Shown here piece by piece: positions 1 to 12,710 of a stretch of DNA of 12,710 nt; the stretch's first letter is position 1; each line of letters opens with the position of its first letter. The translations under genes and the position numbers were made by a program. Where the stretch lies: positions 1-12,710 of the IMG/VR virus record IMGVR_UViG_3300045988_019235; one strand, 5' to 3'. Source of the stretch: a virus. Below the pieces are notes generated by a model. That model was not told the DNA's origin and searched no databases. It saw only the letters and a program-made list of their open reading frames with translations.

Positions 1-23
1 TTCCTCTGAACGCTCTTCCGATC
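1..23. other. Adapter-like terminal 23-mer (probable library artefact, not phage DNA)
   Basis: TTCCTCTGAACGCTCTTCCGATC contains GCTCTTCCGATC, the reverse complement of the Illumina adapter core GATCGGAAGAGC. The whole 23-mer resembles the old paired-end adapter ...TTCCTGCTGAACCGCTCTTCCGATCT apart from two 1-nt gaps. Confidence 0.7.
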
Positions 24-179
24 CAGCATAAAGGTACACAAGGCACCCATTTTTAACATTTCCCAACAGGTTTTTAACACTTGCTAACACACTTTGGCAC
101 GCTTTTTGTTGCCGTGCCACAAGTACCACAATTAACAAGCCTTAACACACTTTAACTCTGTTAAACTTTCATAAAAATG

Positions 180-224
180 ATGTTTCACGTGGAACGGTGG
201 CAAAGTGAATGTTTCACGTGGAAC
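180..224. promoter_or_regulatory. Two ATGTTTCACGTGGAAC sites (182..195 and 211..224) at the inner edge of ITR-L; candidate protein-binding sites
   Basis: The same 16-mer occurs twice, 29 bp apart. It has a CACGTG core and is a near-palindrome. The same motif recurs at 7603..7616 and at 12459..12529. Confidence 0.6.
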
Positions 225-285
225 AAAATTGCGTATATGTTAAAAAGATTTAAATTAATATTTTTGCATTATTTAACAAAAATAA

Positions 286-317
286 TTTGGTTTGTTCGTG
301 GAAAATGCTTATCTTTG
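286..317 (+). promoter_or_regulatory. Promoter P1 (Bacteroidota-type: -33 TTTG at 286..289, -7 TAtcTTTG at 310..317)
   Basis: The sequence is TTTGGT...20-nt spacer...TATCTTTGCA, lying about 45 nt upstream of the ATG at 362. The same architecture and spacing occur at P2 and P3. Confidence 0.7.
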
Positions 318-361
318 CAACAGATTTAGAAATTTAGTTCAACCCTTTAAAATACAAGAAT

Positions 362-688
362 ATGGCAACGTATGAAATTACTTTAGAGTTTGAAACAGTT
401 TTATCTGTTGACGGTACACGTGTTAAAAGTGAAACATCACGTGAAACACAAATAGTTACAGGTGTTTTTGCTGACGTGGCAAAAGTTATGTTTGAACACG
501 AAACAAACTGCATCAAGCACAACAGATTGCCAAAGTTGACGAAAGACGTTTACACCGTCTTTGAATCGAAAGATAGTTTGAACTACATCAACGAATATGG
601 ATGCTGTGTTACTCAACTTTGCAACAAATTAGGTAATAACGCTAGTTCATTCTTACAGTTGATTCAAACAAGCAAAAGAATCAAATAA
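362..688 (+). CDS. Hypothetical protein (108 aa), first gene of the left operon
   Basis: ORF directly downstream of P1 with no competing long ORF. The C-terminal segment VTQLCNKLGNNASSFLQLIQ could be helix-turn-helix-like, which is speculative. It carries a CACGTGAAACA half-site internally (438..448). Confidence 0.6.
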   Translation: MATYEITLEFETVLSVDGTRVKSETSRETQIVTGVFADVAKVMFEHETNCIKHNRLPKLTKDVYTVFESKDSLNYINEYGCCVTQLCNKLGNNASSFLQLIQTSKRIK

Positions 689-698
689 ATGTTTAACC

Positions 699-724
699 GC
701 CTGTAAGGTTCAACCCTTACAGGC
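699..724 (+). other. Intergenic 10-bp-stem hairpin GCCTGTAAGG-ttcaac-CCTTACAGGC inside a GTTTAACCGCC...GGCACAAA motif
   Basis: Perfect inverted repeat read directly. No T-tract follows, so it is not a canonical intrinsic terminator. Confidence 0.5.
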
Positions 725-739
725 ACAAACAAAAAAGTT

Positions 740-934
740 ATGATTAGAGTTGAAAAGTTTAAGTTTGAAAACCGTTTTGAATCTTTTGAAACGAAAAACA
801 TAAAGGTAGTTACAAAAGCGTTAAAAGACTATCGTTTTTGTGGTGGCGGTTTATATATCCACACAAAGTTTGTCGGGCAATATGCAAAGGTGGATTTTAT
901 AGACGTTAACGGCAAACCTGTTAAAAGCATATAA
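740..934 (+). CDS. Hypothetical protein (64 aa)
   Basis: ORF in the same orientation and tightly spaced within the left operon. No recognisable motif. Confidence 0.5.
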   Translation: MIRVEKFKFENRFESFETKNIKVVTKALKDYRFCGGGLYIHTKFVGQYAKVDFIDVNGKPVKSI

Positions 935-969
935 GTTTAACCGCCCTTATGGGCACAAATAATTGATAT

Positions 970-1164
970 ATGGAATATTCATATTTTAAAATTACATTGA
1001 AACAGTCGGACAAAGTAACCGTGTATATGGTACGTTCTGACAAAGTAAGCGAGTTTTTCAACAACAAAATCGACTATTTACAGGGCGACTGTTCGATAAC
1101 TGTAAAGGGTCGTTTTCCAACGCACAAAGATTCTCGAAAGTGGTTTATTGTTTCACCTAAATAA
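970..1164 (+). CDS. Hypothetical protein (64 aa)
   Basis: ORF in operon context, ending 2 nt before the endolysin ORF. No recognisable motif. Confidence 0.5.
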   Translation: MEYSYFKITLKQSDKVTVYMVRSDKVSEFFNNKIDYLQGDCSITVKGRFPTHKDSRKWFIVSPK

Positions 1165-1172
1165 TAGTGTAT

Positions 1173-1595
1173 ATGAAAAAGATTAAGTATTTTAGTTTGA
1201 ATGAGTTTATCACCTCACCAACTGCAAAACGTTTGGGCATTGACAATTTGCCAACGTTTGAAATCGTTGACAACTTGAATCGTCTTGCCGATTATTTGGA
1301 TGGCATCCGTGAAAAGTTAGGCAAACCGATATTGATTAATAGCGGTTATCGTTCACCGATTCTTAATAAAGCGGTTGGCGGTGTGTCTAACAGTCAACAC
1401 CTTAAAGGTTTGGCTGCGGATATTGTTTGCTCTGATATGGAATCTTTGTTAAAGGTTCTTAGAGAAACAGGCGGTTTTGACCAACTTATTAAGGAACACC
1501 GCAAAGGTTCTACATCTTTTTGGTATCACGTTTCAGTTTGTTCACGTAACGGCAAACCCCGTAATCAAGTAATAATGAATCTAGAAAAGAAATAG
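1173..1595 (+). CDS. Endolysin, zinc peptidase M15 family (VanY / L-Ala-D-Glu peptidase-like)
   Basis: SQHLKGLAAD matches the M15 zinc-binding signature SxHxxGxAxD, and a downstream His lies in FWYHVS. It is single-domain, with no signal peptide or TM segment. The ORF track begins at GTG 1167; ATG 1173 (MKKIKYF...) is the more likely start. Confidence 0.85.
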   Translation: MKKIKYFSLNEFITSPTAKRLGIDNLPTFEIVDNLNRLADYLDGIREKLGKPILINSGYRSPILNKAVGGVSNSQHLKGLAADIVCSDMESLLKVLRETGGFDQLIKEHRKGSTSFWYHVSVCSRNGKPRNQVIMNLEKK

Positions 1596-1597
1596 TT

Positions 1598-1846
1598 ATG
1601 CACGAACATTTTAAACTTCTGAAAGATTCCATTTCAGTAACAAAGAAAAGTATTGAAACTGTTGCAAACGATTCAGCTAGCGAAACAGGTTTACTGTTAA
1701 CTTCGTGTGCTGATACCTTACAGGCGAATTTGATTTTCATTGATGCTTTAGAAGTTAAAGCACAAACCTGTTTAGCAGAACGAAACGACCTGTTAACGTT
1801 CATCAATAACAAAGGGTTGTTAGAAGAATTTTATGGTAAGAAATAA
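1598..1846 (+). CDS. Hypothetical protein (82 aa), last gene of the left operon
   Basis: ATG 2 nt after the endolysin stop. Predicted to be helical, with no clear TM segment. Followed by the bidirectional terminator. Confidence 0.55.
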   Translation: MHEHFKLLKDSISVTKKSIETVANDSASETGLLLTSCADTLQANLIFIDALEVKAQTCLAERNDLLTFINNKGLLEEFYGKK

Positions 1847-1850
1847 AGAA

Positions 1851-1878
1851 AACGGGCGGCATCCATTTACCGCCCGTT
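1851..1878. terminator. Bidirectional intrinsic terminator between convergent operons
   Basis: AACGGGCGG-catccattta-CCGCCCGTT is a perfect 9-bp GC-rich stem. It is followed by ATCTTTT on the + strand and by TTTTCTTTATTT on the - strand. It sits between the stops at 1846 (+) and 1884 (-). Confidence 0.8.
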
Positions 1879-1883
1879 ATCTT

Positions 1884-3977
1884 TTATAGATAAACACCTG
1901 TTTCAAGCTGTGAAACAATTTCGTTATATTCATCAACCAACAGATTTGCCGTGTTCAAATTCACGTTGGAAAACTGTGCGAAACCTGTAACCGCATTTAT
2001 AGTTACGTTTTCTTGCGTGTTGTTTACAGGAACATCAACGGTTAAATTCTCAGTAATCAATACATAAGGTTCTAAACCGTACAAAATTTGTTCGTTCCAT
2101 TGTTCACCGCCAACAACGTTTAAATCCGTTCCCAAACGGTAAAGAACATCACGTGACAAAGAAAAACTTTCAATTTGGAATGTCACACCGTCACACGATA
2201 ACAACGCAACAGAATCGCCCGTAATAACGTTTACTTTGATAGTTAAATTAATCGTTTTACCGATGTATTTACTATCTATAGTAACAACACCCCGACACGG
2301 AATAAACATCTGTACCTGTGCGTTAAAGTCTTCATTGTTACCGTTTGCGCCTGTTAGTTCAACGTTTCCGAAATCTAGAACAATAACATCACTATCGGGA
2401 TATTTTACATTTATTCCCGTGTTGTAGTTACCGCATTTCAGAACGTCATCACCGCCAACGGGAACGGTTGTAAAGATTCTTTTGATACGGTTTACATATT
2501 GACCCAAATTGACTTCTGAATATTTTGCACCCGTTTCTGTTTCCCCTGTTTGAACAAAGAAACGTTTCTTTGCAAACTCATCCAAATTCGCCAACGTAAC
2601 GATATAAACGTTTATAGCACCGTAATTTTTGATAGTTGGCGGTGTAACTACATTCGCATTCGCAACGATATTCAAATCAACTGCATTCGGTGTTAAAGTG
2701 AACGTTACACTACCCGTTTGTTTATCTGCTGATATTGTACCGTTTACAACTACGGGATTCCCGTCATCATCTTTGAAATTTGCTTCAATTTCGGTCAATT
2801 CCGTGTTCGGGTTTGCTCTGAAATTAAACGTGTAACTTTGACCCGTTTTAACCTTTACAGGTTTATCGCCAACGATTTCGCAATTAGTCAAACCGTATTG
2901 AACTTCGATATATTTACCTAATAAGTACTCACCGTTGATAATAACCGATTCCGTTGCTATAGGCACAATAGCCGTTGCGGTTTGGTTCGTTACAGTCATA
3001 TTGTAGGTTTCGCCACCGTATGTTATCGTTGGCGTACCGTTAAACATTCCCTTTGCGTTTCCTGTAACCGTTACGGTGTAATTTGTTTCACTTGCAACAG
3101 AACTTGCTGTTGTGTTCTGAATATTGTTGGTTATTTGCAGTTCACGAACACCCGAAATAAAACTACCTGTTATAGTAATTTCGTCACCCTTAGAACAATA
3201 AACAGTAAGTGTTGCAACGTTACCCGATACGGCAAACGGTTCTTTTGTATAGTTTCCATCCCAATCGGTATAACTAGCCATCAAATTGCTAAATGTGCCC
3301 TCACCGTTACCCGTCACCGTTACATTGAAGTGGTGGGCATCCGTTCCCTGTTGGTCGGTTATTGTAACGTCACCCGTCAAACCTGTTTTGTCATAAGACA
3401 ACAAAGTTGTCGGTGTTGGTGGGTCGGGTGTGCCACCGCTTACAAACTCACCTGTTATCGCAATCTCATCACCTTTATTACAGTAAACCGTAATCGTTCC
3501 AACGTTACCCGATACGGCAAACGGTTCTTTTGTATAGTTTCCATCCCAATCGGTATAACTAGCCATCAAATTGCTAAATGTGCCCTCACCGTTACCCGTC
3601 ACCGTTACATTGAAGTGGTGGGCATCCGTTCCCTGTTGGTCGGTTATTGTAACGTCACCCGTCAAACCTGTTGTGTCGTATTTTAACAAGTTTGTGGGCG
3701 TTGGTGTACCGCTTACAAATTCACCGTAAACCGTAACGGTGTTCCAATAGTTTGTGTTGGCAAATAATGTGGCGACTTTTCCGTTAACTGTAAACGGGTG
3801 TTTTGCCCAATCGCCATCCATATTTTCATAGCCACCCGATAAACCGTCTTTAAAATAACCGTCAACGTTTCCCGTCAAAGTTATTTTAAAATGTTTGTCG
3901 TCACCGTCTTGTTCAACTTTCGTTGAAACATCACCGACAAATCGTGATAAACTAATATTTACTAATCTTTCAGCCAT
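1884..3977 (-). CDS. Tail / receptor-binding protein (697 aa) with N-terminal tandem beta-sandwich-like repeats
   Basis: Last and largest gene of the structural operon. It has three about 95-aa tandem modules at the N-terminus (two near-identical), further Ig-like-looking segments and a distinct about 250-aa C-terminal domain. Function is inferred from position and architecture only. Confidence 0.55.
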   Translation of the reverse strand: MAERLVNISLSRFVGDVSTKVEQDGDDKHFKITLTGNVDGYFKDGLSGGYENMDGDWAKHPFTVNGKVATLFANTNYWNTVTVYGEFVSGTPTPTNLLKYDTTGLTGDVTITDQQGTDAHHFNVTVTGNGEGTFSNLMASYTDWDGNYTKEPFAVSGNVGTITVYCNKGDEIAITGEFVSGGTPDPPTPTTLLSYDKTGLTGDVTITDQQGTDAHHFNVTVTGNGEGTFSNLMASYTDWDGNYTKEPFAVSGNVATLTVYCSKGDEITITGSFISGVRELQITNNIQNTTASSVASETNYTVTVTGNAKGMFNGTPTITYGGETYNMTVTNQTATAIVPIATESVIINGEYLLGKYIEVQYGLTNCEIVGDKPVKVKTGQSYTFNFRANPNTELTEIEANFKDDDGNPVVVNGTISADKQTGSVTFTLTPNAVDLNIVANANVVTPPTIKNYGAINVYIVTLANLDEFAKKRFFVQTGETETGAKYSEVNLGQYVNRIKRIFTTVPVGGDDVLKCGNYNTGINVKYPDSDVIVLDFGNVELTGANGNNEDFNAQVQMFIPCRGVVTIDSKYIGKTINLTIKVNVITGDSVALLSCDGVTFQIESFSLSRDVLYRLGTDLNVVGGEQWNEQILYGLEPYVLITENLTVDVPVNNTQENVTINAVTGFAQFSNVNLNTANLLVDEYNEIVSQLETGVYL
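3123..3977 (-). repeat. Tandem 285-bp (95-codon) coding repeat, three units (3693..3977 diverged; 3408..3692 and 3123..3407 near-identical)
   Basis: 3216..3387 and 3501..3672 are 172 bp of perfect identity, checked base by base, offset by exactly 285 bp. Confidence 0.9.
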
Positions 3978-4425
3978 ATTTTAAAACGTTACCTTTAATA
4001 GTTACCATAACAATACTACCTGTTTCGTTCAACAACCCCTTATTCGGAAAATCTAGTTTTCTGATGTTAGGTCGAACGTCAACAACGTTTGAACGGTTTG
4101 AAAGATATTTGTTTCCGTTTTCGCTTTTAGTCAACGTTGCAGTACTGTTTAAGATAATATCCTTATAAGTAAACAGAACGTCAACACGTAAACGAACGGT
4201 GCAAATATCGCCATCCTGTTGTTTCTCTGAAACGAAATAATAACGGTTCAAACTTTCGATATAAACATAGTTAAACGTTACAGGGGTTCGTGTTCTGAAA
4301 CGAACAACAGGGGTTAACACGTTGAACGTTGCATTCAACACACCCGTATATTCTTCGTTTTCCTGTAACGTCTTGTTTACTTCATTCGGTTTACCGTTGT
4401 AAATGAAAGTTTTAATTTTAACCAT
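3970..4425 (-). CDS. Hypothetical structural protein (151 aa), possible tail/collar component
   Basis: Lies between the capsid and tail-fibre genes. Its stop overlaps the start of the 697-aa gene by 8 nt, suggesting translational coupling. No motif recognised. Confidence 0.5.
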   Translation of the reverse strand: MVKIKTFIYNGKPNEVNKTLQENEEYTGVLNATFNVLTPVVRFRTRTPVTFNYVYIESLNRYYFVSEKQQDGDICTVRLRVDVLFTYKDIILNSTATLTKSENGNKYLSNRSNVVDVRPNIRKLDFPNKGLLNETGSIVMVTIKGNVLKYG

Positions 4426-4430
4426 ACCTT

Positions 4431-4477
4431 AAAAGCTAAAAGGGGCATCCCTGTGCTATCAACTACAGGAACACCCC
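4431..4477 (-). terminator. Intrinsic terminator/attenuator downstream of the major capsid gene
   Basis: The minus-strand RNA reads GGGGUGUUCCUGU-aguugauagc-ACAGGGAUGCCCC followed by UUUUAGCUUUU. This is a 13-bp stem including 3 G-U pairs that only form in the minus-strand sense. Confidence 0.55.
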
Positions 4478-4496
4478 AACAGTTAAACAACTAAAA

Positions 4497-5681
4497 TTAG
4501 GCAACAAAGAACACAACAAAGTTTTCGTTTGTGTCGTTGAAGTAACCCGCATCAAACTTGAAATAGTTGTTGAAAAACTCTGCTTTTGCGTTGTAGTTGG
4601 TGGTTACTCGCTTATCCAAATTTGTAACACCCAACGCATCACGGTCGAACATCACACCCAACACACCGCTAACTGAAACGCTCGCACCGCTTGCCGATTT
4701 AACGTCAATCTTTGAAACGTCTGCAAAAGCGTAATCTGTGCCTGTTGCTTGCCAACTTGCAACGGTTTCAGCCTGTGGCAACAGAACGTTCTCGCTGTGG
4801 AACGTGTCGGCATACAGGTATGCTTTTGCAGCGGCTGCGAAATCGGACAACAGAACGGTGTGCAAAACGTCTTTCGGTGTGAATCGTTCCTTACCGCCAA
4901 CGTTGAACAGGGTTGAAATTGTCTGCAAACGGTCGGCATACAAACCCATTGTATAGGCTGCAAAACGGATGAAATCGGGTGTGGTTACTGCTGCGTCTGC
5001 GGTCAAATGTGCGCCCGTCTTAGTGTTGTAAAGTTTCAACAGGTTCACGCAACGAACAGTACTAGCAATTGAATAGTCAACAGTTTCGTGTGTTGATGCT
5101 AACCAACCGAAAGCGGTTTTGTCGGCATTCAAAGTTTCCGCAATCATATTGTTAATTGTGCGCATAACAAGCGCATCCGTCTTGATAGTCATTGACTTCT
5201 CAACTGCGGAATAAATCATTGACAGGAAACCGTTCAACTGCTCTGCACTACTGAAAGATTCCTTTACCTGTCTTTCGGTAATTGATACAGGAACTTCAAA
5301 AGTTACCTTTGAGTTGAAGAACTTAGCGGAAACGGTCGGTTTGTGGAACACGTCTTGTTTGTACTCTGTACCGTCTTTGAGATTCCACGTGTCGTTTTCC
5401 TCAGCCTGTGGAACGTCAGCGGAAATCTTTTCCAAAACGCTACCAAATTCCCACGCATCCATAAGAACACTCGGAACTTTACCCGAATAAGGGCGGTTCA
5501 CAAAAACAACCTTACCGATGTGGTTAACCAACGATTTAACGTAATTATCCACGGCATTTTGGTTGAACACTTCGTTACCCAAATCAACCAAACCTGTAAG
5601 GTCTTCGTGTACCAAATCGGTTTTGCCCAATACTTCACCCGAAACGGTGTTAACTAAACTATAAATCTGCTTTACATTCAT
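4497..5681 (-). CDS. Major capsid protein (HK97-fold, phi29 gp8-like)
   Basis: 394 aa. The N-terminal region (NYVKSLVNHIGKVVFVNR) parallels the phi29 gp8 segment FITSLVDRIGLVVIRQ recalled from memory. Its position downstream of the connector and the following attenuator fit a highly expressed capsid gene. Confidence 0.75.
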   Translation of the reverse strand: MNVKQIYSLVNTVSGEVLGKTDLVHEDLTGLVDLGNEVFNQNAVDNYVKSLVNHIGKVVFVNRPYSGKVPSVLMDAWEFGSVLEKISADVPQAEENDTWNLKDGTEYKQDVFHKPTVSAKFFNSKVTFEVPVSITERQVKESFSSAEQLNGFLSMIYSAVEKSMTIKTDALVMRTINNMIAETLNADKTAFGWLASTHETVDYSIASTVRCVNLLKLYNTKTGAHLTADAAVTTPDFIRFAAYTMGLYADRLQTISTLFNVGGKERFTPKDVLHTVLLSDFAAAAKAYLYADTFHSENVLLPQAETVASWQATGTDYAFADVSKIDVKSASGASVSVSGVLGVMFDRDALGVTNLDKRVTTNYNAKAEFFNNYFKFDAGYFNDTNENFVVFFVA

Positions 5682-5701
5682 TTTTATAAAAATTTTATGT
5701 A

Positions 5702-6271
5702 TTAATAAATATCTATTGTTAACTCTTTTGCAAGTTCTGTTATCACTTGCGTTTTGAAATTAGTTTTGCGCAAACTCATTTCTTTTTGAATAATTTCACT
5801 AGTTGGAACACTAGACGGAACACCGTTCTTAATACTTGTTTTCGTGCCCGTTTCTTGTCTGTTCCCTGTGGAATCTCTTTGCTGTTTCGTGTCATTTCCA
5901 AATTCCCCATTATTAAACGTTACACTTGAATCGACTGTGCTGTTATTGCCTGTTTCGTCAACGGTGTTACTTGTTGTTTCCGTTGTCTTTGACGTTACAG
6001 GGTTCAACACGTCATATTCTTTATTAAACACTTGAATCTGTTTTTGCCATTCGCCAAACTTTACTGTAATAATACCTTTGACAATATCGTTTGCAGTTTC
6101 GTTTGTAACGGCATCACACAAAGTTCTGTTTCCATATTTGAAACGAAAATCAATATCTATTATTTTCGGGTCATCCGTGCCGAATATTGATTCATACAAA
6201 ACAGGAAACAGGGGTTTAAAGATTTTATCAAATAAACCGTTTTCAGTTGTAAAAAGTTCATTAATTTTCAT
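5702..6271 (-). CDS. Hypothetical structural protein (189 aa), possible scaffold or head-associated protein
   Basis: Lies between the connector and capsid genes. Its start overlaps the connector stop by 11 nt. The middle is T/S/N-rich low complexity and the C-terminus is helical. Function is inferred from position only. Confidence 0.45.
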   Translation of the reverse strand: MKINELFTTENGLFDKIFKPLFPVLYESIFGTDDPKIIDIDFRFKYGNRTLCDAVTNETANDIVKGIITVKFGEWQKQIQVFNKEYDVLNPVTSKTTETTSNTVDETGNNSTVDSSVTFNNGEFGNDTKQQRDSTGNRQETGTKTSIKNGVPSSVPTSEIIQKEMSLRKTNFKTQVITELAKELTIDIY

Positions 6272-7325
6272 CTTTGTTTTCTTTTTCTTCTGTTTCTTCT
6301 GTTTCTTGCGTTTCTTCTGTTTCTGTTTCTGTTTCTTCTGTTTCTTCTGTTTCTTCTGTTTCTGTTTCCGTTTCTTCTGTTTCTTGCGTTTCTTCTGTTT
6401 CGTTTTCCGTTACAGGGTCAACGTCTTCTGTGTCGGTGTGTTCGTGCCCGTCTTCTGTTGCTTTGAGCAACGACAAATAATTTTCGTGTTCGATTTTCCA
6501 ACTTGACCCCAAAGTTACGGTAATATCCGTACCGAACATTTCGTTAACACGTTTCACACCCTCAACACGTTCTGTTAACATTGAATCAACGAACGGCATC
6601 AAAGCATCAATATTCATTGAAACTTCTTGCGTGTTCAATCGTTCACGTTTCATATTATAGTTTGCATTCAAACCCAAATCGTTGAACATTGATGCTTTGT
6701 AGTACTGCAACAGTTCTATTAATTGACCGATTTGTTGGTTTCCCTGTGTCGGTGGGGTCTGTAAGTTTACACCTTTGAAAAAAGCATTTTCACCGATAAC
6801 AGAAAAATCACCGTTCAAAATTTTCTGTAAGAACGATTCTGCACTCTGTTTGGTCTTATCGTCACTTGCCGAAATCAACATAGTGATGCGGGTCAATATG
6901 CTAGCCAAATTCAAAGTTATTGTGGCATCCGTGTAAAGTACACCATATTTGCCGATAATAGGCATAAGCGAATCCGCAAACGGTGTGTTATTGATAACTA
7001 CAATATCCTCATCAATTTTGAACGTTTTGTTCAACTTTAACCACGGGTTTGCAACAACGTAATCTTTGCCGTGATAATAGGCATCACAATCGCCACCCCG
7101 TGTGCCCTGTAAAGCATACAAATCCCCGTTGACTTCTGCTATTCCAACGTTACCCGTTGTTTGAAGAATCTTTTCAAGTTCAACAGGCGGCATTGTTTCG
7201 GGCATCCCCGTGTAAACAAACATTTTTGAAGTCATACAAAGAACACGTTGCATAAATGTGAATAATGCTGTATCTTTGTTTTTAACTTCTGTTTGAAACC
7301 TGTTATATAAGTTTTCTTTTTCCAT
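6261..7325 (-). CDS. Portal / head-tail connector (phi29 gp10 upper-collar-like) with acidic Glu/Thr-repeat C-terminal tail
   Basis: 354 aa. Size and pattern parallel phi29 gp10 as recalled from memory: MPETMPPVELEKILQTTGNVG near the N-terminus and NYNMKRERLNTQEVSMN in the centre. Confidence 0.75.
   Translation of the reverse strand: MEKENLYNRFQTEVKNKDTALFTFMQRVLCMTSKMFVYTGMPETMPPVELEKILQTTGNVGIAEVNGDLYALQGTRGGDCDAYYHGKDYVVANPWLKLNKTFKIDEDIVVINNTPFADSLMPIIGKYGVLYTDATITLNLASILTRITMLISASDDKTKQSAESFLQKILNGDFSVIGENAFFKGVNLQTPPTQGNQQIGQLIELLQYYKASMFNDLGLNANYNMKRERLNTQEVSMNIDALMPFVDSMLTERVEGVKRVNEMFGTDITVTLGSSWKIEHENYLSLLKATEDGHEHTDTEDVDPVTENETEETQETEETETETEETEETEETETETEETQETEETEEKENKDEN
6285..6410 (-). 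repeat. Coding microsatellite-like (TTCTGTTTC/TTCTGT)n tract encoding a 42-aa Glu/Thr tail
   Basis: The peptide TENETEETQETEETETETEETEETEETETETEETQETEETEE contains only E and T apart from one N and two Q. The DNA shows higher-order repeats. Confidence 0.9.
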
Positions 7326-7520
7326 TTACTTAATCAAAGTTTTAATTAAGGTACAAAGTTCTGTGAGCACCTTTGTGTTACTTTGTACCGTTTCATTTAA
7401 CTTGTCGGTTTCGTTTTGGTGTCGTTCGTTCTGTTTTTCCATATAGAAAAATAGGGCGACACACACCGCAACAGGAAAACCAACGTTGCTAATAAGTGAA
7501 ATTATTCCGTTTGCATCCAT
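7326..7520 (-). CDS. Small membrane protein (64 aa; N-terminal TM helix plus helical tail), holin candidate
   Basis: GIISLISNVGFPVAVCVALFFYM is the only clear TM segment in the genome. The ISNVGFPVAV pattern recalls YvrJ-family small membrane proteins (from memory, unverified). It is the first gene after P2, and its stop abuts the connector ATG. Confidence 0.6.
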   Translation of the reverse strand: MDANGIISLISNVGFPVAVCVALFFYMEKQNERHQNETDKLNETVQSNTKVLTELCTLIKTLIK

Positions 7521-7553
7521 ATAGTAATTTTTTAACTTTGTTATTTAACGCTG

Positions 7554-7585
7554 CAAAGATAATAACTTTATTTGGTTTCACCAAA
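7554..7585 (-). promoter_or_regulatory. Promoter P2 (Bacteroidota-type) for the structural operon
   Basis: The minus strand reads TTTGGTG...20-nt spacer...TATCTTTGCAG. The -33 element is the complement of 7582..7585 and the -7 element the complement of 7554..7561. It lies about 34 nt upstream of the ATG at 7520. Confidence 0.7.
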
Positions 7586-7588
7586 TAA

Positions 7589-7632
7589 AACAGGGGAAAA
7601 ATGTTTCACGTGAAACAATTTTAACCCCTGTT
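7589..7632 (-). terminator. Terminator hairpin of the replication/packaging operon, with the GTTTCACGTGAAAC palindrome (7603..7616) embedded
   Basis: The outer 8-bp stem AACAGGGG/CCCCTGTT (7589..7596 / 7625..7632) encloses AAAA..TTTT and the perfect 14-bp palindrome. On the minus strand the hairpin is followed by TTTTATTTGG, which contains the -33 TTTG of P2. It starts 9 nt after the ATPase stop. Confidence 0.65.
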
Positions 7633-7640
7633 AACAGATA

Positions 7641-8780
7641 TTAAGTAATAATATTACTGCGAGCACTCGCCATTAAATAGTTACGAACGATTTCGCCAAT
7701 TTCGTTACTTTGATAAAATACCTTATCGGTAGCGAAATATTTAGTTATCTGCGATTCTATATACGTTGCAGTACTCAACAACTTTCGTTTGTAGTTCGGT
7801 TTGCCGTTCATTTGCAACGAATAAATCAAACTGTTGTCGGTGTCCTTAATCGGTGTTGTTTTGTTGTGAATGTAAATGAAATTATTCACACCGTTTTCTT
7901 TGTCCTCAACCTGTATCACGTTACCCTGTAACGTCATTTCGTTAAACTGAATATAGAAGACAAACAACACGTCACTCGGTTTATATTTTACAGGTAGGTG
8001 CGGATATACTGCTAGTTCCCATTTACCGCCCGTAATCATTTGCAAATTTTGGTTGTCGAAACAGAAATATTTGTTACTCGCTTTCTGTTTGACAACAGTA
8101 CTGCAATATTCAACCGCAACCGTTGCACCGTGCTCACCGAACTTATAAATATCTATTGTGCCCTGTTCCATCACTCGCACCTGTTTCAATCCCATTTCGG
8201 TAAAATACGGGCAAAACTGATTCACGGTATTACCTAACATAAAGACTTTAACATCATTTCTTTGACGAATAATTGTACTCAACAGGTTCATATATAGCAT
8301 AAACTCATCGGGCAAATAATAACGTCTTGTAAGGAACTCATCGAAAACAATAGTAGTTATGTTCGGGTAACTGCTAGATTTTTCGTGTTCCTGTTCTGAA
8401 AGACAAAAACCATAACAGAACGGTGTGTTTTCGGGCACACGTTTTTTCGTTTCTGCATCATAGAACGAAAGAAACCATTTACCCGAAACGTAAAACACTT
8501 CGTTAAACTTACCGTTTGTAAGTTCTTTTATCACACCGTTTGCCACGTGATTTGCAAACAAACTTTCTGCACGTTTGCCCCTTAAATCTTCTCGCCAACG
8601 TCTAATATAAGCCATTTGTTTACCTGTGCGCAAATATTCTTTTATTCCATACAACAACGTTGCATACGTCTTGCCGTTGGAACGTTCACCGAAAATAACG
8701 TTGTAATCTGCATTTTTTGATAAAATACGATTCAACGTGTAAAATTTAGGTGTTTCAACTTTTTCTTTTTTCTGTTTCAT
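7641..8780 (-). CDS. DNA encapsidation (packaging) ATPase, phi29 gp16-like
   Basis: 379 aa. Walker A is GERSNGKT (codons at 8667..8690) and Walker B-like is TTIVFDEF. Size and single-subunit organisation are typical of phi29-type packaging ATPases. Confidence 0.8.
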   Translation of the reverse strand: MKQKKEKVETPKFYTLNRILSKNADYNVIFGERSNGKTYATLLYGIKEYLRTGKQMAYIRRWREDLRGKRAESLFANHVANGVIKELTNGKFNEVFYVSGKWFLSFYDAETKKRVPENTPFCYGFCLSEQEHEKSSSYPNITTIVFDEFLTRRYYLPDEFMLYMNLLSTIIRQRNDVKVFMLGNTVNQFCPYFTEMGLKQVRVMEQGTIDIYKFGEHGATVAVEYCSTVVKQKASNKYFCFDNQNLQMITGGKWELAVYPHLPVKYKPSDVLFVFYIQFNEMTLQGNVIQVEDKENGVNNFIYIHNKTTPIKDTDNSLIYSLQMNGKPNYKRKLLSTATYIESQITKYFATDKVFYQSNEIGEIVRNYLMASARSNIIT

Positions 8781-8781
8781 A

Positions 8782-10989
8782 TTATTCCTTTTTTAATCTT
8801 ATTCCCATTAAATAATTTATATAAAGAACTGAAAGACTCAAAGTGTACCCCGTTGGTTCTAAATGTACCCCTGTGGTCGTATCGTAACTTGAAACGTTTC
8901 CCTTATAGTCTTTTATCGTTCCCGTTTGTTCGTAATCTATATACGTGTGGATGTTCTTACCTGTTGCACTCGGTGGGATGTCTAGATAGTTTGTGAACGC
9001 ATCGAACACACCATTTTCACCGTACGTTTCCACCATATAGGGGATAGCTGATTTCTTGTTGACACCCGAAACGGTCATAGAGTAATTATAATTTTTGCCG
9101 TTTACTGTAAGGGCATTTTCTTCTTCAACCATATATCTTTTAGCACCCAAAGTTTTAAAACGGCTGTATCTACCCTCATAGTCCCAAACCCCCAAAGGTT
9201 TTGCTATTCCCTTTATTGTGACGGGTTCAACTTTTTCAAAGGGGATTTTATGATGCTTACAGGCTGCACGCAATTTCTGTTGTGCCAAATCGTTGTATGC
9301 TTTGAAATATTCTTTGTGGGCATCCCCGTTCATTATTTTGACTGAATCGGTGTCGCTGTATATGTAATCGTCACCGCATTCTGAAATACCTGTAAACAAG
9401 TTTCTTCTTGCATAGGCGGTTACATAAATACCCCACGGGTAAAATAAAAAGCGGTTTTTGCTATCGTTGTATTTATTGAGCATTTCTAATTGCTTTTCGC
9501 CTGTAAGGTGTTCCACATCCCACGTTTCCCCGTCACATAGAATCTCATCACGCAACGGGTTTGTAACACACATACCGTAACAACTATTAAGCATTTCTTT
9601 ACTATTCAGATATTCCACTTCTTTACCCTTTACACCTTTAAGTTTCGTCTTCATTTCATACAGGTGCAAAATTGATTCCACAAATTCGGTCGGCAAATAT
9701 TCTTTGCGGTAACAAATCATTCGCCCGATTCTTATTTGTTCCCACGTGTAAAACTGTGAAAACACTTTGTAATCTATTTCTGTAATCGTCATACAGATTT
9801 TCTTTGCACAAACCAATCTACCGTTATTCTCGGAAACGTTTTCTTTGACGAAACATTTACTTACCGATATAGGGTTTTCGTTTTCTGATTTCGCAAATAT
9901 GTTTGTGATTTCTACATCGAACACACAACAAAATTTGCTAGTCATAAACTCAAACTGTTTCATAGACTTTACAGGAACAAAAACACCTGTGCTCATCGGG
10001 AATTTTTCCGACACCATAACATAAGGGTAACTGCTAGTAAAATCGTAACTATCTACGTTTTCAATTACCTCATCGGTATATTTTGCGTTTGCGTGTGTGA
10101 AACCGCCCGAAAACGCCCTTTGCAGCATAGAAAACTCTTCTAAACCTGTAATATTCAAAGAATGAATCTTATCAATATATTTAAAGTTAGGAATCGTTTT
10201 CCCCGTTTCGTCAGTTGTTTTAAAGCATACAGAACGGCAATACTTTCGGACAAACCCCGTTTTTGTAATCGGCAAACGTGTTATTCCTTTATATTGTTCT
10301 ATTAATTCCTGTATATAGCACATCACAACTTTTATGTCGTTCAAACAGTAACCAATTTCTTTTTGGGTCAACGGTGTTTCGCTGTGGCGCAACAGGGAAT
10401 AATCTAAATCCCCGACTAACTTTTCACATTTATATTTGTGAAGTTGTTCACCCAATTTCGCCAACGAATATCCCGAAAGTAAGTAACTGCATCGGAACTC
10501 TAAACCCGTTTTAGTTATTCCGTAAATAGGTTTTCTAAGGTCTATAGAAAAAACTTTTTCCCATTCCAACAGTTCACGGAAAAACTGAAATTCATAAGCT
10601 AAGTTATGCACGTATATAATAACACGCTTTTTCGGGCATAGTTCCAATATAGCCACGATTTCGACTAACATATTCAAAAACTCATCCCACGTTCTACCAA
10701 TAATGCAAAAACCGTTTATTCCAAATTGCCACACATACATCAAAGAACATTTTTCCATTTTGGTTTGTTTACCGCCTAATTTCATATAACGTTCATAACT
10801 GTATGTTTCGCCATCCGCATCCCTGTAAAAAGATGTAGTTTCAATATCGAAAGAAACAGGCACATTAAGGAACTTTTCGCCCTTATTATTGCCTGTAAAA
10901 TTCTTTTCGTTCACCGCCAAAGATAAAACCTTTGCAATATCTTTTGGGGTGTAAACTTCTGTTTGTAGTTCAAAGGGTATTTTCTTCAT
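8782..10989 (-). CDS. Protein-primed family-B DNA polymerase
   Basis: Motifs read directly: Exo I FDIET, Exo II HNLAYEF, Exo III YCLND, FSGG (YxGG-like), motif A DFTSSYPY, motif B KEMLNSCYG, motif C YSDTDS and KxY (AKRY). The long motif A to B spacing is compatible with a TPR1 insertion. The genome has ITRs. Confidence 0.92.
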   Translation of the reverse strand: MKKIPFELQTEVYTPKDIAKVLSLAVNEKNFTGNNKGEKFLNVPVSFDIETTSFYRDADGETYSYERYMKLGGKQTKMEKCSLMYVWQFGINGFCIIGRTWDEFLNMLVEIVAILELCPKKRVIIYVHNLAYEFQFFRELLEWEKVFSIDLRKPIYGITKTGLEFRCSYLLSGYSLAKLGEQLHKYKCEKLVGDLDYSLLRHSETPLTQKEIGYCLNDIKVVMCYIQELIEQYKGITRLPITKTGFVRKYCRSVCFKTTDETGKTIPNFKYIDKIHSLNITGLEEFSMLQRAFSGGFTHANAKYTDEVIENVDSYDFTSSYPYVMVSEKFPMSTGVFVPVKSMKQFEFMTSKFCCVFDVEITNIFAKSENENPISVSKCFVKENVSENNGRLVCAKKICMTITEIDYKVFSQFYTWEQIRIGRMICYRKEYLPTEFVESILHLYEMKTKLKGVKGKEVEYLNSKEMLNSCYGMCVTNPLRDEILCDGETWDVEHLTGEKQLEMLNKYNDSKNRFLFYPWGIYVTAYARRNLFTGISECGDDYIYSDTDSVKIMNGDAHKEYFKAYNDLAQQKLRAACKHHKIPFEKVEPVTIKGIAKPLGVWDYEGRYSRFKTLGAKRYMVEEENALTVNGKNYNYSMTVSGVNKKSAIPYMVETYGENGVFDAFTNYLDIPPSATGKNIHTYIDYEQTGTIKDYKGNVSSYDTTTGVHLEPTGYTLSLSVLYINYLMGIRLKKE

Positions 10990-11660
10990 TATAAACCAAA
11001 TTTTTCAAATTCTTGCAATATCTTTTTTAACGGCTCATCCGTTTTAAATTCGTCAACGTCATTCACGTATGCTTCTGCTGTACCACTGTGGGCGATTTGG
11101 TCTATTGCATCATCCAACGCATTTTCAATTCTAACCGCATCGTCTTCGATTTGGTCGGACACGTCACGGGATTCCTGTTCAAGTTCACCTGTAAAGTCTT
11201 TATATTGCATTAAGTATTGTTCCAAAAATCTTTCATCGGAAACACTTGCAATTTTACCCATTAATTTATCTTGCATCAACTTAAATTCTTTATCGTTTAA
11301 GTCGTAAGACTTCTTTAAGTGATTTGAGTACTCACGTGTACCACTTGCCGTTGATGTCGGTTGTTGCAAAAAAGAAACCGCTTTGGAATATTCGATTTTT
11401 AAATCGTTCCAATCGTGTTTCATTGAAAATTTTGCGAAACCTTTGATGTCACCTTTGTTCAACGCAACAACTGCGGGCGAAACCAAACCCATTTTTTCCA
11501 CGTTTTGGATTCTTCGATTTGCCTGTTGAAATACACGGGCGATTTCTTTGCGTAAATAGCCACGTGATTCTATTGCATCCATTATCTGCTTATCTACGTG
11601 TATTTTAGAAGTTGATGCAAAAGTTCTTTTTGAAAAACCTATCGGATTCAATTTAGCCAT
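10989..11660 (-). CDS. Candidate terminal protein (223 aa)
   Basis: Immediately upstream of the polymerase and translationally coupled to it (TAATG overlap at 10989), as in phi29 gene 3 / gene 2. The N-terminal half is basic and the C-terminal third strongly acidic, as in the DNA-mimicking priming domain of known TPs. No sequence-level proof. Confidence 0.5.
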   Translation of the reverse strand: MAKLNPIGFSKRTFASTSKIHVDKQIMDAIESRGYLRKEIARVFQQANRRIQNVEKMGLVSPAVVALNKGDIKGFAKFSMKHDWNDLKIEYSKAVSFLQQPTSTASGTREYSNHLKKSYDLNDKEFKLMQDKLMGKIASVSDERFLEQYLMQYKDFTGELEQESRDVSDQIEDDAVRIENALDDAIDQIAHSGTAEAYVNDVDEFKTDEPLKKILQEFEKFGL

Positions 11661-11684
11661 ATTATTACAGTTTTAAAATGAAAC

Positions 11685-11727
11685 AAAAAACGGGGCAACA
11701 ATAAACAAAGTTACTGTTTACCCCGTC
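11685..11727 (-). terminator. Putative attenuator/terminator between the 121-aa gene and the TP-polymerase genes
   Basis: The minus-strand RNA reads ACGGGGUAA...UUGCCCCGU, a 9-bp stem with one G-U pair, followed by UUUUUU. It starts 30 nt after the stop at 11757 and ends about 24 nt before the ATG at 11660. Confidence 0.45.
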
Positions 11728-11756
11728 ACGTTATCCACCCTTTACCCTACGAAAAA

Positions 11757-12122
11757 CTACTTATCTACAAACGTTATACCATAACATTTCTTTGCGTGCG
11801 ATTCATATTCGTAAATCGTGTAACCAACTTTGTTGGCTTTGATAGCATCAACCGCCTCACTATCTGCGAGAATCTCACGAATCGTGTCACCTGTGAACTG
11901 TGGCAAATTTACAAGACGTTTGTTCTCGGCATCAATAATAACAGGCGAATCACCCAACTGCGATTTGTGAACGTACATACCGTTGATAGGGTGTACCACA
12001 TCACCGCCACCCTCATTCTCGCTGTTGAAAATGTCGGTCAACTTTACAAACGGAAAATCGGTTGTATCAATACCGAAACTTGTCTTATTGAACTTACTTG
12101 CAAAACTAAAACCTTTAGCCAT
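11757..12122 (-). CDS. Early protein (121 aa), possible ssDNA-binding protein
   Basis: Its size and position (upstream of TP and polymerase) mirror phi29 p5 (124 aa). The C-terminal strand-loop-strand pattern is loosely similar. Weak evidence. Confidence 0.55.
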   Translation of the reverse strand: MAKGFSFASKFNKTSFGIDTTDFPFVKLTDIFNSENEGGGDVVHPINGMYVHKSQLGDSPVIIDAENKRLVNLPQFTGDTIREILADSEAVDAIKANKVGYTIYEYESHAKKCYGITFVDK

Positions 12123-12156
12123 AACTTAATCTTTTTAAAACGTTAAACTTCTGTTG

Positions 12157-12324
12157 TTACTTTACTTCATTCAAACCGTTTGCAGCCGCAAAATCGTTCA
12201 ACCACTTCTTAAAGCGGTTCAACTTAATAACCGCCTTATCGTCTTTAGCAACTTCGTTTGAAGTCATTAAAGCGTTAACACTTGTAATACAGTTGAAAAC
12301 AGTTTCATTAAAATTTTCGTTCAT
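12157..12324 (-). CDS. Small early protein (55 aa), absent from the supplied ORF track
   Basis: Hand translation of the minus strand gives MNENFNETVFNCITSVNALMTSNEVAKDDKAVIKLNRFKKWLNDFAAANGLNEVK*. The ATG at 12324 lies about 45 nt downstream of P3, and the ORF fills an otherwise empty gap before the 121-aa gene. Confidence 0.55.
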   Translation of the reverse strand: MNENFNETVFNCITSVNALMTSNEVAKDDKAVIKLNRFKKWLNDFAAANGLNEVK

Positions 12325-12374
12325 AACTTACCTAATTTAAATTGTTAAACTTATATTGTTTATTAAACACGGTG

Positions 12375-12406
12375 CAAAGATACGTCTTTTTCTAATAACC
12401 ACCAAA
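12375..12406 (-). promoter_or_regulatory. Promoter P3 (Bacteroidota-type) for the right-end replication operon
   Basis: The minus strand reads TTTGGTG...20-nt spacer...TATCTTTGCAC. The -33 element is the complement of 12403..12406 and the -7 element the complement of 12375..12382. The upstream TTAACtAAAATAATTTGGT is 18/19 identical to the equivalent P1 segment. Confidence 0.7.
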
Positions 12407-12458
12407 TTATTTTAGTTAAAAAGTATTAAAGAATAAAATTAATATCTGTTAACACTTC

Positions 12459-12529
12459 GTTTCACGTGAAACATTAATAACAGTTTGTTCCACGTGAAAC
12501 ATTCACTTTGCCACCGTTCCACGTGAAAC
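12459..12529. promoter_or_regulatory. Three phased GTT(T/C)CACGTGAAAC sites (12459..12472 unique perfect palindrome; 12487..12500 and 12516..12529 in ITR-R)
   Basis: Read directly. Spacing is 28 and 29 bp. The unique copy is flanked by the CTGTTA/TAACAG inverted repeat (12446..12451 / 12478..12483). Confidence 0.6.
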
Positions 12530-12710
12530 ATCATTTTTATGAAAGTTTAACAGAGTTAAAGTGTGTTAAGGCTTGTTAATTGTGGTACTTGTGGCACGGC
12601 AACAAAAAGCGTGCCAAAGTGTGTTAGCAAGTGTTAAAAACCTGTTGGGAAATGTTAAAAATGGGTGCCTTGTGTACCTTTATGCTGGATCGGAAGAGCG
12701 TTCAGAGGAA
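12484..12710. repeat. Right inverted terminal repeat (ITR-R)
   Basis: Exact reverse complement of 1..227. Confidence 0.95.
12688..12710. other. Adapter-like terminal 23-mer (mirror copy)
   Basis: GATCGGAAGAGCGTTCAGAGGAA, compared with the Illumina PE adapter GATCGGAAGAGCGGTTCAGCAGGAA... as recalled from memory. Confidence 0.7.

Follow-up and report, generated by a model that had tools for sequence, protein, structure and literature searches.

Introduction

Bacillus phage phi29 (Salasmaviridae) depends on the host RNA polymerase and is transcribed in divergent and convergent units, with an internal terminator in the early operon (PMC11476376). The phi29-like phages of Gram-negative hosts were reviewed by Evseev et al. 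(2024), where protein homology led to the suggestion that one member, 2692_55609, infects Bacteroidales; promoters and Shine-Dalgarno (SD) sites were not analyzed in that paper (PMC11476376). Shah et al. (2023) assigned gut Salasmaviridae-like viral operational taxonomic units to Firmicutes and Actinobacteria only (PMC10159846). The present analysis concerns IMG/VR virus record IMGVR_UViG_3300045988_019235, all 12,710 nucleotides (nt) of which are referred to here as the window, and more specifically the promoter element that precedes each of its three transcription units. This element and the sequences preceding the start codons point to a host in the Bacteroidota, and the probability that the phage and its uncultured relatives infect this phylum is put at about 0.8.

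Bayley et al. in 2000 reportedly placed the -33 TTTG of the Bacteroidota promoter ~19-21 nt upstream of the -7 box; the spacing range quoted for Flavobacterium is N17-23. The -7 consensus is TAnnTTTG, refined to TAHHTTTG (PMC7366714, PMC6847099), and in F. johnsoniae this box is placed with its G at -5 (PMC6847099). Bacteroidota leaders carry A at -3, -6 and -11 to -15 (PMC7366714; PMC6847099). The elements of the window resemble the sigma-ABfr promoters of B. fragilis, B. thetaiotaomicron, Flavobacterium and phage B40-8 in possessing both boxes, the 20-nt spacing and a TAHHTTTG box without G at the H positions, as well as in their location upstream of operons with SD-less, A-rich leaders. They differ in that all copies have extended boxes (TTTGGT, TATCTTTGCA) that are near-identical, and as promoters they are putative.

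Whole-window megablast against cultured and deposited phages gave zero matches. The nearest cultured phages by protein are Salmonella phages astrithr, Astrid and assan, Enterobacter phage Entb_47, Shigella phage vB_SHGBLB0004, Pectobacterium phage DU_PP_III, the Acinetobacter phage Phanie and Vibrio phage K58 g2, with capsid proteins 56-59% and polymerases 42-47% identical. Because these nearest relatives are Gram-negative phi29-like phages, the statement in a preliminary description of this DNA that Firmicutes, Mollicutes or Actinomyces are the hosts of essentially all cultured phi29-like phages is outdated. The genus threshold of the International Committee on Taxonomy of Viruses is ~70% nucleotide genome similarity; with no megablast match and proteins 42-59% identical, the window falls outside the genus Astrithrvirus. 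Like phages of the Astrithrvirus type (genomes of 10-12 kb), it has inverted terminal repeats and the gene order small genes, terminal-protein position, PolB, gp16 ATPase, small membrane protein, connector, protein of ~190 amino acids (aa), Phi29_MCP, tail-knob part of ~150 aa and large distal tail protein, with the small-gene block convergent. Unlike them, it shows no DNA-level similarity to the group, in which SD sites are used and the Bacteroidota motif is absent; it has an additional internal promoter and an additional internal terminator that separate the ATPase gene from the structural genes, carries its M15 endolysin within the convergent block and not behind the tail gene, and bears TTTCACGTGAAA palindromes that are absent from those phages.

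The likeness to phi29 itself comprises a protein-primed PolB, Phi29_MCP, connector, gp16 ATPase and an AAA genome end, as well as transcription by the host RNA polymerase in divergent and convergent units with an internal terminator. In contrast, the genome of the window is one third smaller, its tail knob is split, its terminal repeat measures ~198 nt rather than 6 nt, a packaging RNA (pRNA) is not found by Rfam, p4 and p6 have no recognizable counterparts, and host phylum and promoter type differ. Phage 2692_55609 (12,148 bp, faecal; compared by its description only) is likewise a small phi29-like phage with an Astrid-like plan, a split tail knob and a bioinformatically proposed host; it differs in belonging to a capsid-protein cluster of its own, said to be related to Amedibacillus phage AD70P2, and in a GC content of 42.5% compared to 37.8% in the window.

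Putative Promoters of the Three Transcription Units

The element TTTGGT-N18-TATCTTTGCA occurs exactly three times in the window (P1, P2 and P3, Table 1), where 0.06 copies are expected, and none of 200 shuffled sequences yielded three. No further site was found in the window, even with two mismatches allowed. Each copy is non-coding and stands just 5' of the first gene of a same-strand block (362 to 1846 on the plus strand, 7520 to 1884 and 12324 to 7641 on the minus strand), and TTTG and TA are 20 nt apart in all three. The same element with the same spacing before every unit had been claimed in the preliminary description, and these counts bear the claim out. The published consensus (-33 TTTG; -7 TAnnTTTG, refined TAHHTTTG) is matched at 10 of 10 specified positions, including TATCTTTG as the -7 box in all three copies.

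Under the relaxed pattern TTTG-N19-21-TAnnTTTG the window holds four copies compared to 0.62 expected, a number reached by 2 of 500 shuffles. The refined -7 box is concentrated in non-coding DNA, with 5.73 copies of TAHHTTTG per kb there and 0.87 per kb in coding sequence (6.6-fold, Fisher p = 6e-4). A sigma-70-type reading of the promoters was rejected because the number of such sites (31, with 33 expected) matches that of shuffled sequence.

When the F. johnsoniae rule that places the G of the -7 box at -5 is applied to P1, P2 and P3, the predicted leaders are 40, 29 and 46 nt long, respectively. The fourth relaxed match (7510-7540, plus strand; TTTGCATCC...TAACTTTG) is directed antisense to P2, in overlap with the start codon of the holin-like gene; two of the relatives (L004, L010) have it as well, and it may be a chance match or else a promoter for antisense transcription. 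Two more -7-like boxes (TATTTTTG, one of them followed by CA) are present in the left non-coding end at 259-266 (plus strand) and 277-284 (minus strand), both lacking a -33 TTTG, and the latter is oriented into the terminal repeat.

Conservation in Relatives

At least 354 relatives are present in IMG/VR, and 80 of these, with capsid proteins 89-98% identical, were taken for comparison. Three or more bipartite motifs are found in 75 of the 80 and all three strict motifs in 48, always at the same three positions. When the alignments were anchored at the start codon downstream instead of at the motif, conservation of TTTGGT and TATCTTTGCA was at least 95%, and variation was greatest in the 18-nt spacer. 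The alignment of P2 (81 distinct sequences) likewise combines ATTTGGTG and TATCTTTGCA, both at least 95% conserved, with a variable spacer. Conserved boxes around a variable spacer are what a two-box promoter should show. In the deeper branches of the clade, TAHHTTTG is retained in the corresponding intergenic regions.

A scan of 185,579 species genomes for the capsid gene returned 37 contigs (L084-L120), all in metagenome-assembled genomes (MAGs), with capsid proteins 53-92% identical. With these included, the family splits cleanly into genomes with near-background SD pairing energy and -7 or bipartite motifs, and genomes with strong SD sites and essentially no motif. Pairing energies in the SD-using group range from -4.3 to -10.6 kcal/mol, the partial contig L108 (-2.4 kcal/mol) being the exception. 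At similar GC, bipartite motifs number 0.285 per kb in the SD-less genomes (300 in 90 genomes) and 0.012 per kb in the SD-using relatives (4 in 33). In a neighbour-joining tree of the capsid protein, the SD-less genomes form one clade nested among SD-using ones, in a family to which Salmonella, Acinetobacter and Vibrio phages belong.

Cultured phages served as controls on both sides. The proteobacterial phages astrithr, Phanie and K58 g2 have an SD core on 38-85% of their genes, with mean energies of -4.8 to -6.8 kcal/mol, and none of the three carries the bipartite motif. In the cultured B. fragilis phage B40-8, with a GC content (38.6%) near that of the window, SD energy averages -0.83 kcal/mol; there are four bipartite motifs, all intergenic and on the coding strand, and the -7 box occurs at 2.13 per kb in intergenic compared to 0.29 per kb in coding DNA.

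A search of public assemblies with the capsid protein gave at least 8000 clusters (90% identity), all at E <= 1e-10, and the clade is therefore extremely common in such assemblies. One 9.2-kb metagenome contig (L122; ENA ERZ28579053, scaffold_1533; sample SAMEA4545311) encodes an identical capsid protein in the same gene order.

Translation Start Regions

A 4-nt SD core precedes only 1 of the 16 genes of the window, and the mean anti-SD pairing energy (-1.09 kcal/mol) is not better than that at random genome positions (-1.44 kcal/mol). The lack of SD sites noted in the preliminary description is thus confirmed, and the upstream sequences quoted there for the capsid and connector genes are correct. 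Across 116 start regions of the SD-less clade, the frequency of A is 62, 69, 77 and 55% at positions -14 to -11 and 59% at -3, and G makes up only 3-5% at -14 to -12; A at -6 (44%) is not clearly enriched. This leader profile agrees, except at -6, with the one published for Bacteroidota and is that of B40-8, whereas the relatives outside the clade instead show a G peak at -13 to -8.

Genome Organization

The window holds the complete linear genome of a podophage of the phi29-like (Astrithrvirus-like) kind, with protein-primed replication. Matches to PF03175, PF25622, PF05352 and PF05894 all exceed the Pfam cut-offs and agree with those to PHROGs; the core genes are those of the protein-primed PolB, Phi29_MCP, connector and gp16-type ATPase. 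The inverted terminal repeats are 227 nt long as assembled (Table 1). Each window end (1-29 and 12682-12710) consists of an Illumina adapter remnant, TTCCTCTGAACGCTCTTCCGATC, followed by CAGCAT. The sequence AAAGGTACAC is the exact start of 24 contig ends among the relatives, several of which have adapter (...GCTCTTCCGATCT) joined straight to it. The real genome therefore extends from ~30 to 12681, with a terminal repeat of ~198 nt. Its AAA terminus, comparable to the AAAGTA of phi29, fits sliding-back initiation.

Table 1. Positions of promoters, transcription units, hairpins and terminal repeats in the window.
Feature	Coordinates	Strand	Details
Promoter P1 (putative)	286..319	+	-33 TTTG 286-289; -7 TATCTTTG 310-317; predicted start A322; serves unit 362..1846
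Promoter P2 (putative)	7552..7585	-	-33 7585-7582; -7 7561-7554; predicted start G7549; serves unit 7520..1884
Promoter P3 (putative)	12373..12406	-	-33 12406-12403; -7 12382-12375; predicted start G12370; serves unit 12324..7641
P1 unit	362..1846	+	Open reading frames 362-688, 740-934, 970-1164, M15_3 endolysin 1173-1595, 1598-1846; 0 SD sites
P2 structural unit	1884..7520	-	Holin-like 7326-7520 (64 aa), connector 6261-7325, 189-aa protein 5702-6271, Phi29_MCP 4497-5681, 151-aa protein 3970-4425, 697-aa distal tail protein 1884-3977
P3 replication/packaging unit	7641..12324	-	55-aa, 121-aa and 223-aa proteins, protein-primed PolB 8782-10989, gp16-type ATPase 7641-8780
Bidirectional intrinsic terminator	1851..1878		Between two convergent units; 11-pair stem, 7 GC pairs, T tract; dG -20.2 kcal/mol, z = -4.8
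P3-unit terminator hairpin	7589..7632	-	dG -20.3 kcal/mol, z = -3.55; inverted repeat I11
Internal terminator/attenuator-like hairpin	4442..4477	-	U tract; 3' of capsid gene
Internal terminator/attenuator-like hairpin	11689..11727	-	U6 tract; 3' of 121-aa gene
Left inverted terminal repeat	1..227		Identical (100%) to 12484-12710; bases 1-29 adapter remnant and junk; phage end AAAGGTACAC from 30
Right inverted terminal repeat	12484..12710		12682-12710 artefactual

The structural unit is syntenic with astrithr and Phanie. The open reading frame (ORF) of 223 aa lies directly upstream of the polymerase gene, in the terminal-protein position of these two phages, and has no family matches. The 697-aa tail protein also lacks family matches and has only a weak match to Pectobacterium phage DU_PP_III; a direct repeat of 257 nt (3165-3421 and 3450-3706, 91% identical) is present in its gene. 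Together with the 151-aa protein it occupies the place (1884-4425, minus strand) of gp9 and gp10 in Phanie, which form a split tail knob with Ig-like domains. The infectivity of Phanie reportedly requires the contractile tail of a helper myophage (PMC11476376), and because of this the SD-less clade may, by analogy, also depend on the tail of a helper phage. The C-terminus of the connector (6260-6410, minus strand) is a long acidic repeat of the ETEETEETQ type, derived from a 9-nt tandem repeat (family D1).

Pfam, PHROGs and further domain searches found no RNA polymerase or sigma factor domain in any ORF of the window. A tRNA scan of the window found none. The Rfam scan of the window gave no pRNA match at E <= 1, although a divergent pRNA could escape it; an unrecognized small RNA may be transcribed from the genome end, where the two -7-like boxes without a -33 TTTG lie. 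A sub-threshold Rfam match to CsrC was taken as chance.

Hairpins and Palindromes

In the hairpin that ends the P3 unit, the TTTCACGTGAAA palindrome forms the loop-proximal part and the U tract overlaps the -33 box of P2. The two internal hairpins, 3' of the 121-aa and capsid genes, resemble attenuators that would raise the relative output of these genes.

The palindrome TTTCACGTG(G/A)AA is found at 183-194, 212-223, 435-446, 7604-7615, 12460-12471, 12488-12499 and 12517-12528. The left and right terminal repeats thus contain copies, as does the loop-proximal stem of the terminator at 7589-7632, and copies lie upstream of all three promoters, with centres ~60 to 153 nt before the predicted starts. 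CACGTG occurs 14 times in the window, compared to ~1.6 expected by our own estimate from composition. The palindrome is kept across the SD-less clade (four copies per repeat in L090, 15 sites in L115) and is present in a few SD-using relatives, with 1-2 copies in L097, L104 and L116; astrithr, Phanie and K58 g2 lack it. A phage-encoded DNA-binding protein, either a regulator or an origin-recognition protein, probably binds it, by analogy with the role of p4 and p6 in phi29.

Discussion

The arrangement described above suggests how the phage may be expressed in a Bacteroidota host. Three promoters of the primary-sigma (sigma-ABfr) type, with -33 TTTG, a 20-nt spacer and TATCTTTG at -7, would drive all transcription and would be recognized by the RNA polymerase of the host, with starts at A322, G7549 and G12370, ~5 nt past the G of the -7 box. 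Since the genome lacks an RNA polymerase or sigma domain, the phage would rely on the host holoenzyme. P3 would serve the genes for replication and packaging, P2 the structural genes together with the holin-like gene, and P1 four small ORFs and the endolysin, the three units being delimited by hairpin terminators. Translation would be of the Bacteroidota style, lacking SD pairing and using leaders rich in A at -14 to -11 and -3. The clade, whose relatives infect Proteobacteria, probably arose by a single host shift from ancestors with SD sites and sigma-70-type promoters, its cis signals having been replaced wholesale.

The host argument of the preliminary description, which regarded a Bacteroidota host as atypical for phi29-like phages, is strongly supported by the footprint, by B40-8, by the 33 SD-using genomes and by the capsid tree. 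Its qualification as atypical was overstated, given the Gram-negative Astrithrvirus-like branch and the Bacteroidales case already suggested (PMC11476376). Outside the cis signals, evidence on the host is weak. The endolysin had been offered as a further argument. As described there, it is a single-domain M15 peptidase (Peptidase_M15_3, residues 7-113 of 142), and its top matches among cultured phages are B. fragilis siphophages at 45-50% identity. These matches tie with Achromobacter and Burkholderia phages, and therefore the enzyme, a lysin of the Gram-negative type, supports a Gram-negative host only. No named cellular homologue appeared among the 120 endolysin matches listed, all of which are metagenomic, 82-92% identical and in many cases on ~12-kb contigs; they are apparently copies from the same phage clade and uninformative on the host.

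Besides this tie, several points weigh against a Bacteroidota host. No prophage or isolate provides a direct host link: the capsid protein has zero matches in plasmid records, which were searched for carrier-state isolates, and no isolate genome among the 185,579 species genomes carries the capsid gene, which was found in MAG contigs only. The closest of these contigs, L084 and L085 (92 and 90% capsid identity), come from Melainabacteria and Gastranaerophilales bins, and only one contig of the SD-less clade comes from a Bacteroidota bin (Prevotella, 78%). Finally, TAnnTTTG alone is at the genome-wide chance level (22 copies, 19.4 expected). In the preliminary description, TAnnTTTG/TTTG pairs equally frequent at random positions were to refute the Bacteroidota reading, a test partly answered by these counts: the short box alone is not enriched, but the bipartite motif exceeds expectation and TAHHTTTG is enriched in non-coding DNA. 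The chance level of the short box is also what favours the view that the motif copies are a by-product of A+T-rich sequence, a view already refuted by the shuffled sequences that never reached three strict matches, by the scarcer motifs of SD-using relatives with equal or lower GC (0.012 compared to 0.285 per kb), and by the conserved motif positions in relatives.

The MAG labels are the basis of a different and unlikely explanation, in which the host belongs to the gut Melainabacteria (Gastranaerophilales, non-photosynthetic Cyanobacteriota), with low SD use and a polymerase that recognizes this or a similar motif. The bins of L084 ('Candidatus Melainabacteria') and L085 ('Candidatus Gastranaerophilales') come from two independent studies, both contigs carry the three promoters, and the phage GC of 37% is near the 33% that the first MAG carries in its name. 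A subset of Cyanobacteria also lacks SD sites (PMC6847099), a point that counts against the Bacteroidota reading as well. However, labels across the family look like noise. The 37 contigs (2-14 kb) are distributed over very different phyla and are mostly whole phage genomes with terminal repeats, which therefore indicates phage contamination of the bins, and the binning of a 12-kb phage contig relies on composition and coverage rather than linkage. Other contigs of the SD-less clade are labelled Scatosoma, Prevotella, Tissierella, Staphylococcaceae, Acutalibacteraceae and Christensenellaceae, and the labels Bacteroidales (L097, L116) and Phocaeicola (L091) are attached to contigs with strong SD use, contrary to what is expected of those taxa. 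Because the labels are mutually inconsistent and at odds with the cis signals, they are treated as noise, with the exception of the Melainabacteria case considered here. The -33/-7 consensus is documented for Bacteroidota, with a looser variant in the related Chlorobi, and we know of no report of it from Cyanobacteria; a literature search on phages, promoters and SD use of Melainabacteria and Gastranaerophilales found nothing usable. If this explanation were true, the phage would represent the first lineage infecting that uncultured group, and -33 TTTG/-7 TAnnTTTG promoters with A-rich, SD-less leaders would exist outside Bacteroidota and Chlorobi.

The looser -7 consensus of Chlorobi, whose RpoD clusters with that of Bacteroidota, and the lack of a direct host link from the MAG-contig and plasmid searches also leave some room for a host in another lineage without SD sites and with a -33/-7-type promoter, either another member of the Fibrobacteres-Chlorobi-Bacteroidetes (FCB) group or an uncharacterized gut lineage. 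This is very unlikely: to our knowledge Bacteroidota are the only abundant FCB-group members of gut communities, and the window fits the strict Bacteroidota TAHHTTTG together with the leader profile of B40-8. It is likewise very unlikely that the likeness to Bacteroidota promoters is coincidental and the repeated element is a phage-specific site, bound by a phage regulator or by a phage-encoded or modified polymerase. The copies do share bases beyond the consensus (TTTGGT, TATCTTTGCA), and several small ORFs have no known function. Nevertheless, the element agrees with the consensus at every specified position and in spacing, its spacer is the least conserved part, as for a two-box promoter, and deep branches retain only the -7 box, with other bases at nn. 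The 12.7-kb genome encodes no polymerase or sigma domain, and the independent translation signature indicates the same phylum.

A Bacteroidota host thus remains the favoured reading. The general idea of a phi29-like phage in Bacteroidales is not new, since Evseev et al. (2024) proposed one; the novelty lies in the evidence from cis signals, in how large and coherent the clade is and in the pattern of a single shift. The phage likely represents a lineage of minimal podophages of gut Bacteroidota with protein priming, one that is extremely abundant and has never been cultured. If this is true, gut Bacteroidota carry a very abundant ~12-kb podophage lineage with no cultured member, and the phylum would be the third major host group for phi29-like phages. 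The clade would also provide a clean natural case of a cross-phylum host shift, in which all promoters and ribosome-binding regions were rewritten while gene order and proteins were kept, and its minimal genome with three compact, near-identical strong promoters would be a candidate tool for Bacteroides genetics. Within this family, typing by cis signals (promoter type and SD use) separates hosts better than MAG labels do.

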